Positions 11,965 to 47,795 of a stretch of 64,000 nucleotides of DNA are shown here, piece after piece (positions within the stretch are counted from its first letter, which is position 1; every line of letters starts with the position of its first letter). The notes beneath the pieces were generated by a model. That model had not been told where the DNA came from. It saw only the letters and a list, made by a program, of their open reading frames with translations, and ran no database searches. The position numbers were made by a program, and so were the translations under genes. The stretch is from Pseudomonadota bacterium (GTDB taxonomy: Bacteria; Pseudomonadota; Alphaproteobacteria; Rhodobacterales; Rhodobacteraceae): positions 3,934 to 67,933 of the forward strand of contig JAYZLL010000035.1 in NCBI GenBank assembly GCA_036154315.1, read 5' to 3'.

Positions 11965-12378
11965 ATGGGCGAAGTGGAACTGGCAGCGATTCTGTGCAGC
12001 CTCATCCTTGGGGGCGAGGCCGAGGTGCGCCATCCGTATAGCGCCGCCTATGATCTCCATTATATCATCGTCGATTGCGAGACCGAGGATACGGTCTATG
12101 AGGTCGGGCTCGACAAACGCTCCTCCACCGACAGTCTGCATCAGGCGCTCTTCGCCGCGCAGCTCACCGGCAAGACGCCGGGCATCGTCATGATCGACAC
12201 CAACGGGCGCGAAGATCAGTATGAATATCAGGTGCGCAGTACCGCACAGAGCGCCGGGGTCGAGTACCGCGTCTACGATCGCGACTTCCTGATCCGTTGG
12301 CAGATGACCGATTATCTGCGCAACTACCCCGTGCCGCAGGCCTCCGGCGAAGACCTGACGCTCCTCATCCTCGACTGA
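11965..12378 (+). CDS. hypothetical 137-aa protein (no family recognised)
   Basis: AGGAGG RBS at 11954-11959, ATG at 11965 (GTG at 11962 also possible). Good GC3 bias and no signal peptide. Confidence 0.6.
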   Translation: MGEVELAAILCSLILGGEAEVRHPYSAAYDLHYIIVDCETEDTVYEVGLDKRSSTDSLHQALFAAQLTGKTPGIVMIDTNGREDQYEYQVRSTAQSAGVEYRVYDRDFLIRWQMTDYLRNYPVPQASGEDLTLLILD

Positions 12379-28571: not shown

Positions 28572-29576
28572 ATGGCCACCATTCGGGCTAACGACCGCGA
28601 ATTCGCGAAAGCTACGGGATCGAACATCAACTCGTCGGGGGACGAGTCGGATTTCGATCTGCCGCTCGACGACATGACCGATCTGGTCATCTACACGCCG
28701 CTTCTGGATTTCGACCCCTATCTGTTCGAGCTGGGCGAAACCCACACGCTGACGTGGAACGACAGCGACGGTTCGCACACGATGTATAACGCCGAAGTCG
28801 TGCGCTCGGACCTTAAGTGGAACACCGCGAACCAAGGTGCCGTGGTCTTCGAAGGCACGGACACGGACGGCAACGCCACACAGGTGCTCTGGACCCCCGA
28901 CCTCGACGTGCATCAGTGGTATGCGAACACGCAGGCCAGCGGCCGTCACCCGATGTTTTACAACACGGACCAGCATCCCTCGACCTATGGTTACGTCTGC
29001 TTTGCGGGCGAGACGCGGATCGAAACCGATCGCGGTCTCGTCCGGATCGACGAGATTCAGCCCGGCGACCGGGTCGCGACGCTGGATCATGGCTATCAGA
29101 CGGTGCGCTGGGTCGGTCACTCGCGTGCCCGCGCCACGGGCGATGCGGCGCCGATCCGGTTCGAGGCGGGCGCGATGGGCCAGCACGGCAGCCTGCGGCT
29201 GTCACCCAATCACCGCGTCGTTCTGCGCGATGCCAAGATGAAACAGGCGCTGGGTCAGGCTCAGGTCATGGTCGCGGCCAAGGCGCTTGCCGGTCGTCCG
29301 GGCATTTCGCGCGAAGAGGGTGGGTTCGTCGAGTATTACAACATCCTCTTCGACAAGCATGAGGTGATCTTTGCCGAAGGTCTGGCCTGCGAGTCGCTGT
29401 ATCTCGGGGAGCAGACCCGCAAGGTGCTGGGCGCGGCCGACAGCGATCCGCGTGCGCAGTACCCGGATCTCGAGACCGTCAACGGCATCGAACACAAGCG
29501 TACCGCACGTCCGTTCTTGGATGTGGGCCATGCCCGCGCCTATTTCGACGCGCGTGACCTGTGCGAAGCCGCCTGA
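28572..29576 (+). CDS. Hint (Hedgehog/intein-like, bacterial BIL-type) domain protein
   Basis: 334 aa. The C-terminal domain starts with the nucleophile Cys in YVCFAGETRIETDRGLVRIDEIQPGDRVATLDHGYQTVRWVG ... SPNHRVV ... HEVIFAEGLACESL. The N-terminal 140 aa are acidic with no signal peptide. Confidence 0.8.
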   Translation: MATIRANDREFAKATGSNINSSGDESDFDLPLDDMTDLVIYTPLLDFDPYLFELGETHTLTWNDSDGSHTMYNAEVVRSDLKWNTANQGAVVFEGTDTDGNATQVLWTPDLDVHQWYANTQASGRHPMFYNTDQHPSTYGYVCFAGETRIETDRGLVRIDEIQPGDRVATLDHGYQTVRWVGHSRARATGDAAPIRFEAGAMGQHGSLRLSPNHRVVLRDAKMKQALGQAQVMVAAKALAGRPGISREEGGFVEYYNILFDKHEVIFAEGLACESLYLGEQTRKVLGAADSDPRAQYPDLETVNGIEHKRTARPFLDVGHARAYFDARDLCEAA

Positions 29577-29590
29577 ACTTTCCGGAACCC

Positions 29591-29636
29591 CCAAAAAAGA
29601 AACGGTGACGCTCGGGAGGAGGTGAGCGCCACCGTT
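29591..29636 (-). terminator. Rho-independent terminator of the CcsR-like array (also usable from the + strand)
   Basis: 13-bp stem (29601-29613/29624-29636). On the minus strand it is followed by UUUCUUUUUUGG. On the plus strand TTCTTT follows, so it can also terminate the convergent Hint gene. Confidence 0.75.
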
Positions 29637-29672
29637 CTTTAGGCAATCGGCCTCAGGGAGGAGGAAGAGGCC
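29591..29672 (-). ncRNA. CcsR/cuckoo-type sRNA unit 4 (ends in the terminator)
   Basis: Hairpins 29649-29672 (GGCCTC/GAGGCC) and 29601-29636. Motif at 29656 and 29614. U tract at the 3-prime end on the minus strand. Confidence 0.7.
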
Positions 29673-29713
29673 TTTTGCTTCGTCCGGGGTTGCCCCCGTA
29701 TGGATGCCCGTCA

Positions 29714-29773
29714 GCCTCAGGGAGGAGGAAGAGGCGTTCAGGCTACGGTCACCCCAGGGAGGAGGAGAGGGGC
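29714..29773 (-). ncRNA. CcsR/cuckoo-type sRNA unit 3
   Basis: Hairpins 29751-29773 (CCCC/GGGG plus a terminal G-U on the minus strand) and 29714-29735 (GCCTC/GAGGC). Motif at 29757 and 29720. Confidence 0.65.
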
Positions 29774-29788
29774 TTCCGATCTTTTGGC

Positions 29789-29853
29789 CGGTGGCGCTCG
29801 GGAGGAGGTGAGCGCCACCGACTATGCAGAACTTCCCGGGAGGAGGTGGGAAG
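29789..29853 (-). ncRNA. CcsR/cuckoo-type sRNA unit 2
   Basis: Hairpins 29832-29853 (CTTCCC/GGGAAG) and 29789-29820 (CGGTGGCGCTC/GAGCGCCACCG). Motif at 29838 and 29800. Confidence 0.7.
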
Positions 29854-29876
29854 ATCCGTATTGGGGACCCGGGGTC

Positions 29877-29940
29877 ACGTCTGGGAGGAGGTAGACGCTG
29901 TCCGGGTCATCGAGGAAACCTCAGGGAGGAGGTAGAGGTT
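29877..29940 (-). ncRNA. CcsR/cuckoo-type sRNA unit 1 (two CCUCCUCCC-loop hairpins)
   Basis: Hairpins 29917-29940 (AACCTC/GAGGTT) and 29877-29898 (CGTCT/AGACG). Loop motif (as + strand GGGAGGAGG) at 29924 and 29883. Unit boundaries are approximate. Confidence 0.7.
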
Positions 29941-29951
29941 CCCCGAAACGC

Positions 29952-30170
29952 TTATTTCGTGCCGTAGGCCGCTTCGCGGGCCAGGAACGGGATTTCTGCG
30001 CGGCTGATGCCGAGGTCAGCGAGGTCGCGACCGTCGAGTGCCTGCAGTTCTTTGATCGTCGTGCGGTAGACCTTGCGCTGGGCGCGGGCTTCGCCGAATG
30101 CTTTGAACAGGTTGGACACGCGGTCGAGCAGGCCGTGGTCTGCGGAGCGGATATCGGTTGCGTATGCCAT
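29952..30170 (-). CDS. DUF1127 small protein (CcaF1-like), 72 aa
   Basis: MAYATDIRSADHGLLDRVSNLFKAFGEARAQRKVYRTTIKELQALDGRDLADLGISRAEIPFLAREAAYGTK. The L..LDDR.L.DIG..R..I core is the DUF1127 signature. Purine-rich RBS (AAGAAAGAGA) upstream. The ORF track lists a longer 108-aa version. Confidence 0.8.
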   Translation of the reverse strand: MAYATDIRSADHGLLDRVSNLFKAFGEARAQRKVYRTTIKELQALDGRDLADLGISRAEIPFLAREAAYGTK

Positions 30171-30284
30171 GTCGTCGTCTCTTTCTTCTCGTCTGCGCCG
30201 CTTGGCGCCGTCTGGCTTGCGAAGCTCAGTGCCTCGCTGCGTTGAAATGAATTTGGTCCATTTGCTGCACCTGCACAATCCGGG

Positions 30285-30311
30285 GAATGGTCATTGCCGC
30301 TATGCAGCAAG
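30285..30311 (-). promoter_or_regulatory. candidate alternative-sigma (RpoH-like) promoter for the DUF1127-CcsR transcript
   Basis: Minus strand reads CTTG-N17-CCATTC (complement of 30308-30311 and 30285-30290), about 110 nt upstream of the ATG. Match to the remembered consensus is loose. Confidence 0.25.
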
Positions 30312-30439
30312 TGCATACGTAATGCTGACCTTGTTTGTTAACCCTAGGTAAACGTTCCAAAGTTCCGGCGCAGATCGCGCTCGGCCCCTTGAGAAACAGG
30401 GCGGAATGGGCATGTATGCCCCGACTGGAAAAGGAGAAA

Positions 30440-31522
30440 ATGATGGCGCTCACACGCGATCAGGTGATGTCGACCCTCGCCACCGTGGCGTTGCCGGACC
30501 AAGGCGACCTCGCATCACGAGACATGATCCGGGCTTTGACCATCGACGGCGGGCGCGTGAGCTTCATCATCGAAGCCCCGAATCCCGAGGCAGCAGGGGC
30601 GCTGGAGCCTCAGCGCAAGGCCGCGGAAGCCGCCGTTGCGGCGCTGGACGGGGTCGAAAAGGTCACGGCGATTCTGACAGCCCACGGCGGCACCAAGCCG
30701 GCCCCTAAACAGGAAGCTCCGAATCTCCGTGTCGGCGGGCATCCGAAACCGCAGGCGGGTCCGCAGGCGATTCCGGGTGTAAAGCGTGTGGTCGCCATCG
30801 CGTCGGGCAAGGGCGGGGTCGGCAAATCCACGGTGTCCTCGAACCTCGCGGTCGCTCTTGCAGCGGCCGGGCGCAAGGTCGGTCTGCTCGACGCTGACAT
30901 TCTCGGCCCGTCGCAGGCGCTTATGATGGGTGTCACCGAAAAGCCGACCTCGTCGGACGGCAAGCAGCTCGACCCGATCATGGCGCATGGGGTCAAGGTC
31001 ATGTCGGTCGGGGCCATCGTGGACCCGGACCAGGCCGTGGTCTGGCGCGGGCCGATGCTGATGGGCACGCTTCAGCAATTCGCGTTTCAGGTGAACTGGG
31101 GCGAGCTCGATGTTCTCCTCGTCGATTTGCCGCCCGGCACCGGGGACGTGCAGCTGACCCTTGCGCAGAAAGTGGTGATGACCGGCGCGCTCGTCGTGTC
31201 GACCCCGCAGGACGTGGCGCTGCTCGACGCGCACAAGGCGATCGACATGTTCAGCAAGGTCAGCGTGCCCGTGCTCGGCATGATCGAGAACATGTCCTCT
31301 TATATATGTCCCAACTGCGGGCATGAGGCGCATCTCTTCGGGGAAGGGGGCGTGGCCGCCGAAGCGCAGAAGATCGGCGCGCCGCTTCTGTCACAGCTTC
31401 CCCTGTCGCTGGACGTGCGTCTGGCCGGGGATGCGGGCAAACCGGTTGCCCTGAGCGAAGGCGCGGTGGGCGAGGCCTACCGGGCGCTGGCCGCCGACCT
31501 CGTCGCGCGCGGCATCGGCTGA
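30440..31522 (+). CDS. apbC: Mrp/NBP35-family Fe-S cluster carrier ATPase
   Basis: AAGGAG RBS at 30431-30436, ATG at 30440. Deviant Walker A ASGKGGVGKST and CPNCGH cluster-ligand motif. N-terminal DUF59-like domain. Confidence 0.9.
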   Translation: MMALTRDQVMSTLATVALPDQGDLASRDMIRALTIDGGRVSFIIEAPNPEAAGALEPQRKAAEAAVAALDGVEKVTAILTAHGGTKPAPKQEAPNLRVGGHPKPQAGPQAIPGVKRVVAIASGKGGVGKSTVSSNLAVALAAAGRKVGLLDADILGPSQALMMGVTEKPTSSDGKQLDPIMAHGVKVMSVGAIVDPDQAVVWRGPMLMGTLQQFAFQVNWGELDVLLVDLPPGTGDVQLTLAQKVVMTGALVVSTPQDVALLDAHKAIDMFSKVSVPVLGMIENMSSYICPNCGHEAHLFGEGGVAAEAQKIGAPLLSQLPLSLDVRLAGDAGKPVALSEGAVGEAYRALAADLVARGIG

Positions 31523-47342: not shown

Positions 47343-47795
47343 ATGACGATCGAAGCAAAGCCGCGTGTGCGGGAACTTTCGCGCTACGACTTCCCTGATC
47401 TGCACGAGCTTCTAACCCATTATAGTGGCGGCAAACCCGTGCCGGATGGGAGCGCGGGCGAGGCGATCCTCTATGAAATCCTCGCCATGCCGGGCACCTC
47501 GCTGTTCGGGGCGGAATGCGAGGGCAAGATCGTCTCGACCGCGATGCTGTCGATCCTGCCCAACCTGACCTTCGGGGGCCGCCCGCTGGCGCGGATCGAA
47601 AACGTGGTGACGCATCCCGACTATCGTGGCCGTGGCTTTGCGGCGGCGGTGATGGAAAAGGCCATCGAAAGGGCCAAGACCAAAGACTGCGCCGATATAT
47701 CGCTGCTGTCGCCCAAGTCCCTGAAAGCCGAAGGGTTTTACCGCAAGCTCGGGTTCAAGGACGACACCGTGGGCCTGCACCTGTCCATCGGCTGA
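47343..47795 (+). CDS. GNAT-family N-acetyltransferase
   Basis: GGGAGGA RBS 5 nt before the ATG at 47343. VVTHPDYRGRGFAAAVMEKAI acetyl-CoA binding motif. Confidence 0.82.
   Translation: MTIEAKPRVRELSRYDFPDLHELLTHYSGGKPVPDGSAGEAILYEILAMPGTSLFGAECEGKIVSTAMLSILPNLTFGGRPLARIENVVTHPDYRGRGFAAAVMEKAIERAKTKDCADISLLSPKSLKAEGFYRKLGFKDDTVGLHLSIG

Follow-up and report, generated by a model that had tools for sequence, protein, structure and literature searches.

What is encoded by the run of short repeated motifs that lies between a Hint_2 gene and a DUF1127 gene in a 64,000-nt stretch of a Rhodobacteraceae genome (contig JAYZLL010000035.1; the whole stretch is called the window here), and from which strand is it read? 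A first-pass annotation, made without database searches, had taken the repeats for a cluster of CcsR/cuckoo-type small RNAs (sRNAs) with anti-Shine–Dalgarno (anti-SD) loops. This reading is supported by Rfam models, by conservation, by covariation and by the strand. The region is very probably the 3′ untranslated region (UTR) of a minus-strand DUF1127 (ccaF1-like) operon, encoding four tandem two-hairpin CcsR/cuckoo sRNAs of the CIN1 type. The family is a known one, as the annotation had held; the RNAs, their DUF1127 link and their mechanism were described between 2009 and 2021, and the locus is a typical member.

Eight hairpins with one loop motif

The 9-mer GGGAGGAGG occurs eight times on the plus strand, starting at 29614, 29656, 29720, 29757, 29800, 29838, 29883 and 29924, and both the count and the positions given by the first-pass annotation are exact. 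No further exact copy lies elsewhere within the 64-kb window. Dinucleotide-preserving shuffles contain 0.67 copies on average (maximum 4; 0 of 100 reach eight), and one-mismatch copies elsewhere in the window are at chance level (22 found, 21.7 expected). As minus-strand RNA, in which the motif reads CCUCCUCCC, the region 29585–29955 folds at −169 kcal/mol (z = −6.9 against shuffles). All eight copies are unpaired in hairpin loops of 10–13 nt, in the fold of the whole region as well as in the folds of single hairpins, and each lies in the loop of its own hairpin, as had been claimed.

The hairpins are numbered H1 to H8 along the minus strand. The motifs are spaced by 42, 37, 38 and 41 nt within pairs and by 64, 43 and 45 nt between pairs. 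The linkers H1/H2 (2 nt, in unit 1), H3/H4, H5/H6 and H7/H8 are 2–4 nt long, and those between the pairs are either A/U-rich and 8 nt long (CCCCAAUA, CAAAAGAU) or consist of AUCCAUA and a small motif-less hairpin. By linker length the eight hairpins group as 2+2+2+2, which bears out the proposed division into four two-hairpin units. The gene and the units, all on the minus strand, are as follows.

29952–30170 (−): DUF1127 (CcaF1-like) gene, 72 amino acids (aa), stop codon 29952–29954 (Pfam PF06568)
29867–29949 (−): CcsR-like unit 1, with leader GUUUCGG, H1 (29910–29946) and H2 (29867–29907); from folds and a CcsR1 match of 24.3 bits
29859–29866 (−): inter-unit linker CCCCAAUA, A/U-rich, 8 nt, candidate RNase E site
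29783–29863 (−): CcsR-like unit 2, with H3 (29827–29858) and H4 (29787–29822); best CcsR1 match
29779–29786 (−): inter-unit linker CAAAAGAU, A/U-rich, 8 nt, AGA invariant in 15 aligned sequences, candidate RNase E site
29706–29778 (−): CcsR-like unit 3, with H5 (29746–29778) and H6 (29706–29743); from folds, the most divergent unit
29685–29698 (−): motif-less hairpin CGGGG-GCAA-CCCCG between units 3 and 4, with AUCCAUA before it; from the fold
29593–29678 (−): CcsR-like unit 4, with H7 (29643–29678) and H8 (29596–29640), the latter a Rho-independent terminator with the U tract UUUCUUUUUU at 29593–29602

The remaining details of the annotation also match the sequence. These are the quoted stems, the pairs 29608/29629, 29751/29773 and 29877/29898 that are A-C on one strand and G-U on the other, the UUUCUUUUUUGG tail, the spacings and the flanking genes, which encode a Hint_2 protein (28572–29576, plus strand) and the DUF1127 protein. 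The two arms of each stem belong together: cognate hairpins average −16.4 kcal/mol, compared with −7.0 kcal/mol for left/right chimeras. The sole swap with comparable stem strength is between H4 (motif at 29800) and H8 (29614), which have near-identical paralogous stems. Differing stems among eight paralogous hairpins of one sequence are, however, not strict covariation, which requires a cross-species test.

Relatives were taken from a scan of reference genomes, with a query built from a 10-sequence alignment, which gave 80 Rhodobacterales DUF1127 loci. The loop motif is kept in them. The exact 9-mer (CCTCCTCCC) is found directly downstream of the DUF1127 gene, on the sense strand, in 72 of the 80 loci (1–23 copies), and six of the other eight have shortened CUCCUCCC or UCCUCCC loops at the same place. 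All 534 motif copies in the relatives' loci are in loops closed by at least four pairs. The 14 loci of the Maritimibacter/Sinisalibacter clade have eight copies each, with nearly the spacing of the window. The arrangement of DUF1127 gene and motif is also present in Loktanella and Paracoccus, both listed as CIN1 carriers, and in a metagenome-assembled genome (MAG) of Rhodobacter sp.

The number and form of the hairpins vary among the relatives. Between 1 and 23 are found downstream of the DUF1127 gene, examples being L051 (2677–3635, Loktanella atrilutea), L044, L048, L073 and L075. The 23 motif copies of Loktanella atrilutea exceed the largest cluster of the 2015 survey (nine two-hairpin units), and one Maritimibacter MAG (L014) has 12 copies where its relatives have eight. 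Shortened loop motifs (CUCCUCCC, UCCUCCC, AUCCUCCC) are found in otherwise typical post-DUF1127 hairpins of L064, L065, L077, L078, L019 and L026, in lineages that include Ascidiaceihabitans and Marinosulfonomonas. Counts of the family that rely on the exact 9-mer are therefore too low.

For covariation, the window was aligned with the 14 Maritimibacter/Sinisalibacter loci (15 sequences, MAFFT). RNAalifold recovered six of the eight motif hairpins, and 32 of the 57 predicted pairs show compensatory changes. The controlled count, from which two spurious helices were removed, was compared with shuffles and with alignments in which the 3′ partners were slid. Stem cells are paired in 95.1% of cases (83.4% in shuffles), and 29 of 51 pairs are changed on both sides (17.3 in shuffles). 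The covariation score is 0.453, compared with 0.236 for shuffled alignments, none of 500 of which reach 0.453, and falls to 0.149 or less when the 3′ partners are slid by 1–3 columns. H2 and H5 were misaligned by MAFFT and were left out of the score; their stems visibly differ and stay complementary. Among the individual hairpins, H1 has double changes in five of its six pairs, helices 2 and 3 in unit 2 are 96–99% paired with 11 doubly changed pairs, and H6 is supported by covariation (helices 4 and 5). In the terminator hairpin (helix 7) pairing is complete (100%), and none of the 15 sequences lacks its T tract. The motif-less hairpin, which has a GNRA loop, is kept in 15 of 15 clade loci with stems that differ yet are complementary (alignment columns ~304–322). 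The stem covariation that the first-pass annotation had asked to see in syntenic relatives is thus strong across the 15 loci.

Strand and family of the RNA

Rfam matches, hairpin stability, the U tract and the DUF1127-strand rule all agree with the earlier assignment of the RNA to the minus strand. For seven of the eight hairpins in the window, the minus-strand RNA is the more stable form. Among the 534 hairpins of the relatives, the sense RNA is the more stable in 354 and the antisense RNA in 174 (Wilcoxon p = 7e-28), with 530 G-U pairs in sense and 321 in antisense orientation. Only on the minus strand does the last hairpin lead into a U tract. In the relatives the motif shares the strand of the DUF1127 gene; the only exception is an isolated antisense copy that lies far from the gene.

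Covariance models were run in E-value mode on a 1-kb region. CcsR1 (RF02791) matches the minus strand at 29783–29863 (48.7 bits, E = 1e-10, full model 1–83), at 29597–29681 (36.1 bits, E = 6e-7) and at 29867–29949 (24.3 bits, E = 0.0018). The model ar14 (RF02344), which describes three-hairpin RNAs, matches the same strand at 29598–29708 (49.9 bits, E = 6e-8) and at 29824–29951 (45.8 bits, E = 5e-7). The first of these ar14 matches covers the motif-less hairpin, H7 and H8, and the model aligns the motif-less hairpin as its first hairpin. All significant matches (E < 0.01) are on the minus strand. The covariance-model check that had been proposed thus returns both families with significant E-values, at scores below the gathering level. 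The motif-less hairpin may be a "blank" first member of unit 4, which would then amount to a three-hairpin RNA, or it may be a processing signal.

Several points weigh against the assignment. In gathering mode, the whole window gives no Rfam match, as CcsR1 reaches 48.7 of the required 65.3 bits and ar14 49.9 of 58.8 bits, and unit 3 is unmatched by the CcsR1 model at E ≤ 10. The −10-like element of the putative promoter, CCAAATT, is a weak match, and a simple sigma-70 scan found no promoter. The SD-like sites that had been quoted as complements of the loops do exist (GGGAGGA 4 nt upstream of the ATG at 47343; AGGAGG 5 nt upstream of the ATG at 11965), but they are only ordinary ribosome-binding sites of a generic kind, from which no target specificity follows. 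Transcription, processing, stress induction and targets are argued here by homology.

As to the scores, 18 clear loci with DUF1127 gene and motif from other Rhodobacterales were used for calibration. None of the 18 passes the gathering cut-off of CcsR1 and four pass that of ar14; the Rfam cut-offs are therefore too narrow for the family and cover only close relatives of the seed. Covariance models have been described as performing poorly for the cuckoo family (PMC4615179). The sub-threshold scores are not counted against membership in the family as its authors define it.

That definition is of two to four adjacent hairpins with the loop motif CCUCCUCCC and variable stems (PMC4615179, Reinkensmeier & Giegerich 2015). 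The window has eight exact motifs in the loops of adjacent hairpins, and the stems vary across the 15 loci while the structure is conserved. The CIN1 subgroup is defined by adjacency to a DUF1127 orthologue (orthologous group OG1), and its Rhodobacteraceae members are typically clusters of two-hairpin units, "2222" in the published table (PMC4615179). Here the DUF1127 gene lies directly upstream of the hairpins on the same strand, its stop codon ~6 nt before H1, and the cluster in its 3′ UTR ends in a Rho-independent terminator. The first-pass annotation had named this gene only as a boundary; as DUF1127 adjacency defines the CcsR (CIN1) subgroup, with the RNAs in the 3′ UTR of the gene, its reading is strengthened. 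The encoded protein matches PF06568 with E = 2e-11 (43.8 bits; cut-off 23.3). In a protein search it was identical to one from a "Pseudomonadota bacterium" MAG and showed 82–85% identity to the proteins of named Maritimibacter species; the orthologue in Maritimibacter alkaliphilus HTCC2654 is 93% identical, and the locus of that strain (L001) has the same eight hairpins.

The closest described system is CcsR1-4 of Rhodobacter (Cereibacter) sphaeroides (formerly RSs0680a-d; RF02791), four homologous RNAs with two CCUCCUCCC-loop hairpins each, encoded with ccaF1 (RSP_6037) (PMC8034643). The window shares with it the four tandem two-hairpin units, their place on the same strand in the 3′ UTR of a DUF1127 gene of about 71–72 aa (R. 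sphaeroides CcaF1 has 71 aa; PMC8034643) and a terminal hairpin that is the terminator. The leader and the linkers are likewise U-rich, with GUUUCG here and GUUUCC at the cleavage site of CcsR1. In R. sphaeroides, ccaF1 and CcsR1-4 are co-transcribed from an RpoHI/HII promoter to a Rho-independent terminator as a 680-nt precursor, and the 5′ ends of the CcsR RNAs are RNase E cuts next to U residues, made with the help of CcaF1 (PMC8034643). The predicted precursor here is of similar length (~650 nt), and the putative TTG and −10 elements may be those of an RpoH-type promoter. The window copy, known here from its sequence, differs in belonging to another genus (a Maritimibacter-like MAG), in its diverged stems (CcsR1 model 48.7/36.1/24.3 bits, unit 3 missed), in the extra motif-less hairpin ahead of unit 4 and in its downstream neighbour, Hint_2 instead of the benzoate transporter common in Rhodobacteraceae (PMC4615179).

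NfeR1/alpha-r14 (RF02344) of Sinorhizobium meliloti and other Rhizobiales has the identical CCUCCUCCC motif, variable stems and an association with DUF1127 (CIN1); its ar14 model gives 49.9 bits here, and both loci have a TGCA-N6-GCAT box at about −72..−60. NfeR1, however, is one RNA of three hairpins, is transcribed from a sigma-70 promoter of its own, lies 5′ of the DUF1127 gene and is Hfq-independent (PMC8034643, PMC10746234), whereas the two-hairpin units of the window lie 3′ of the gene and would have to be cut from a precursor. AbcR1 and AbcR2 of the Rhizobiales, which are co-activated by LsrB/VtlR, resemble the family in that anti-SD-like C/U-rich loop seeds silence many mRNAs at their ribosome-binding sites (PMC10746234, PMC7486931). 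They differ in seed motif and structure and in having no link to DUF1127, and no Rfam match for them was obtained here.

Other explanations of the repeats must be weighed. GGGAGGAGG is a perfect extended SD, and on the plus strand it could act as the SD of small open reading frames (ORFs) or, in the 3′ UTR of the Hint gene, as a decoy that binds ribosomes. ORFs can be called mechanically on this strand at 29675–29935 and 29700–29894, but no start codon is conserved at SD distance, the interspecies indels are not multiples of three and substitutions keep pairing rather than codons. Coding sequence was rejected on either strand. The plus strand also folds below shuffles (z = −3.1), with a long-range helix replacing the hairpins around 29656–29765, but the G-U/A-C asymmetry and the confinement of significant Rfam matches to one strand favour the minus strand. 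H8 followed by GUUCUUUAGG could help to terminate the convergent Hint gene, yet the motif follows the orientation of the DUF1127 gene across the 80 loci and a Hint neighbour is present in four only. We regard a plus-strand element as very unlikely. We give still less credence to a DNA-level repeat without RNA function, in the form of a tandem or repetitive extragenic palindromic (REP)-like array, a clustered regularly interspaced short palindromic repeat (CRISPR)-like array or stacked terminators. A short repeated motif inside palindromes in an intergenic region would suit it, but compensatory changes and G-U bias indicate selection on RNA pairing of one strand, and throughout an order the motif keeps a fixed place beside one gene family. 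A 9-nt repeat with differing flanks can be neither a tandem duplication nor a repeat of the CRISPR kind, for which ~23–50 nt are needed; the "spacers" of a CRISPR array would be the arms of adjacent palindromes. REP palindromes or bacterial interspersed mosaic elements (BIME) were rejected, as the 64 kb contain no further exact copy, near-copies are no more frequent than expected by chance and the orientation is fixed relative to DUF1127 in the 80 loci, and stacked terminators were rejected because only the last hairpin has a U tract.

A third alternative concerns the role of the RNA rather than its existence. The loops might mainly titrate an RNA-binding protein (the DUF1127 protein, Hfq or ribosomal protein S1) as CsrB/RsmZ do with CsrA, and not mainly pair with mRNA. 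The many hairpins with one invariant loop motif, in 1–23 copies between species, are the typical architecture of such a sponge, and CsrB, RsmY and RsmZ likewise have many hairpins with one short invariant motif each and a variable copy number. In those RNAs GGA motifs bind CsrA/RsmA. The motif of the window is CCUCCUCCC, and its loops are without a GGA/CsrA-type motif. In vitro, CcaF1 does bind both CcsR1 and the precursor of CcsR1-4, and RSs0680a is bound by Hfq (PMC8034643, PMC4615179), but mRNA pairing has been shown for members of the cuckoo family. In NfeR1, three redundant anti-SD loops cover the ribosome-binding site of ntrB, and silencing is lost in a two-plasmid assay when they are mutated (PMC10746234); an interaction of CcsR1-4 with flhR mRNA is reported as a citation in PMC8034643. 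A role mainly as a sponge is therefore improbable in our judgement, although sponge and pairing roles are not mutually exclusive.

Proposed precursor, processing and pairing

On the preferred reading, that of a DUF1127-CcsR operon acting through its loops on mRNA, transcription would start near 30242, ~72 nt ahead of the DUF1127 start codon, from a stress-responsive RpoH-like promoter and probably under LysR-type control as well. RNA polymerase would read through the 72-aa gene and the eight hairpins and stop at the last hairpin and its U tract near 29593, giving a precursor of ~650 nt. The anatomy for this is present in the sequence, and the transcript is predicted from it. Only ~6 nt separate the stop codon from H1, the linkers are at most 8 nt long and the small hairpin takes up the gap between units 3 and 4; there is therefore no room for internal promoters.

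A simple terminator scan missed the minus-strand terminator, since its loop limit is 8 nt and the actual loop has 10 nt; the single plus-strand "terminator" that it reported is at chance level. H8 has an A tract on one side and a T-rich tract on the other (GUUCUUUAGG on the plus strand). It may also be a weak terminator for the convergent Hint_2 gene, which ends at 29576.

By homology with R. sphaeroides, RNase E, possibly helped by the DUF1127 protein, would cut the A/U-rich 8-nt linkers and release four RNAs of ~80–110 nt; cuts would be expected in CCCCAAUA, CAAAAGAU and AUCCAUA. For the CcsR/CIN1 subgroup, co-transcription with the DUF1127 gene under stress is described, followed by maturation into separate RNAs of ~70–90 nt that depends on RNase E and CcaF1 (PMC4615179, PMC8034643). 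Each RNA would carry two single-stranded CCUCCUCCC loops, predicted to pair with GGAGG-type SD regions of selected mRNAs and to block translation or cause decay. The eight loops would be redundant seeds, by analogy with CcsR1-4 and flhR and with NfeR1 and ntrB.

The ribosome-binding region of the DUF1127 gene itself (30171–30195, minus strand) consists of a conserved run of purines (AGAAAGAGACGACGACAUG) that lacks a GGAGG core. The mRNA of the operon is therefore probably a poor target of its own CCUCCUCCC loops.

The region upstream of the DUF1127 gene

The divergent neighbour of the DUF1127 gene (30335–31522, plus strand; likely true start 30440) encodes an Mrp/ApbC-type iron–sulphur carrier ATPase with ParA/NUBPL and FeS_assembly_P domains. 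This mrp/apbC neighbour is kept in 65 of the 80 loci, and the locus is therefore positionally orthologous; a Hint_2 gene is downstream in only four. The pairing of DUF1127 and mrp/apbC genes across these 65 loci suggests a shared bidirectional control region.

Conservation is far higher 60–150 nt upstream of the DUF1127 start codon than in the sequence around this stretch. The elements recognised in the stretch are listed below, with the function of each proposed from position and sequence.

30302–30315 (−): distal LysR-type box TGCACTTGCTGCAT (TGCA-N6-GCAT), −73..−60 from the predicted start, putative function
30262–30278 (−): TTGTGCAGGTGCAGCAa, comprising a putative proximal box TGCA-N6-GCAa (30262–30275) that overlaps the −35 TTG (30276–30278)
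30250–30256 (−): putative −10-like element CCAAATT (A-12 at 30254, T-9 at 30251), with the predicted start near 30242

An invariant TTG (30278–30276), A (30254) and T (30251) fit the positions −36..−34, −12 and −9, which are the decisive positions of RpoHI/HII promoters (Dufour et al., PMC3441632). From this fit the start is predicted near 30242. The TTG, A and T positions agree with the published logos; the −10 is weak, and the same block resembles a LysR-type site. In the −10-like element the C, A and TT columns are invariant within the clade, and relatives have CCCATNT or CTACAT.

All 15 aligned sequences agree in the TTGTGC and GCAGCA columns, and the element TTGTGC-N4-GCAGCA (ATTGTGCA-N3-YGCAGCAT) is present in 58 of 79 loci. 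A palindrome, YATGC-N7-GCATR, lies 38–39 nt upstream of the ATTGTGCA element, and both are instances of TGCA-N6-GCAT. Within the window, the two promoter elements occur only at the DUF1127 locus. Exact TGCA-N6-GCAT is found in 73 of the 80 upstream regions of the relatives, compared with 0.1–0.4% of control windows, and two boxes 39–40 nt apart in 60 of 80, compared with 0 of 2120 control windows. In the block 30243–30320 (minus strand; loci L001–L080) the boxes are at about −73..−60 and −33..−20 of the predicted start. The usual layout of LysR-type regulation has a distal site near −65 and a proximal site overlapping the −35.

In the S. meliloti NfeR1 promoter, TGCA-N6-GCAT at −72 to −60 is the LsrB site, verified by electrophoretic mobility shift assay and by mutation (PMC10746234). 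The distal box of the window is at −73 to −60, measured from a start that was predicted independently. In Rhizobiales, VtlR/LsrB directly activates DUF1127 genes and NfeR1 (PMC7486931, PMC10746234). We tentatively propose that the Rhodobacterales DUF1127-CcsR operon is switched on by a LysR-type regulator with LsrB/VtlR-like specificity through two boxes near −66 and −26, with or instead of RpoHI/HII; we consider this possible but lean to doubting it. A 2025 study states that LsrB occurs in Rhizobiales only and is missing from R. sphaeroides (PMC11975290). No LysR-type gene was found in the window by tblastn with the Escherichia coli OxyR sequence and by a crude regular expression. The conserved block, which is equidistant from both genes, could instead serve the divergent mrp/apbC gene. 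The LysR-type box pair is the sole element of the locus that goes beyond what was found described.

The value of the locus is thus mostly one of annotation. The ccaF1-CcsR locus described here is new and has clear boundaries; it belongs to a marine bacterium resembling Maritimibacter, and the published table of species (PMC4615179, Table 1) has no entry for that genus. The calibration (0 of 18 for CcsR1, 4 of 18 for ar14) indicates that automatic Rfam annotation at gathering thresholds misses the family almost entirely in Rhodobacterales, and the comparative set, with 80 loci, 1–23 hairpins per locus and ~540 motif hairpins, all with the motif in the loop, is a resource for a better family model. 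The box pair, found across an order at the position that it has in the NfeR1 promoter, offers a testable hypothesis on the control of stress RNAs outside Rhizobiales. If the proposal is true, either Rhodobacterales have an unrecognised LsrB counterpart or another LysR-type regulator has taken over the site, and the module of regulator, DUF1127 gene and cuckoo RNA would predate the split between Rhizobiales and Rhodobacterales.

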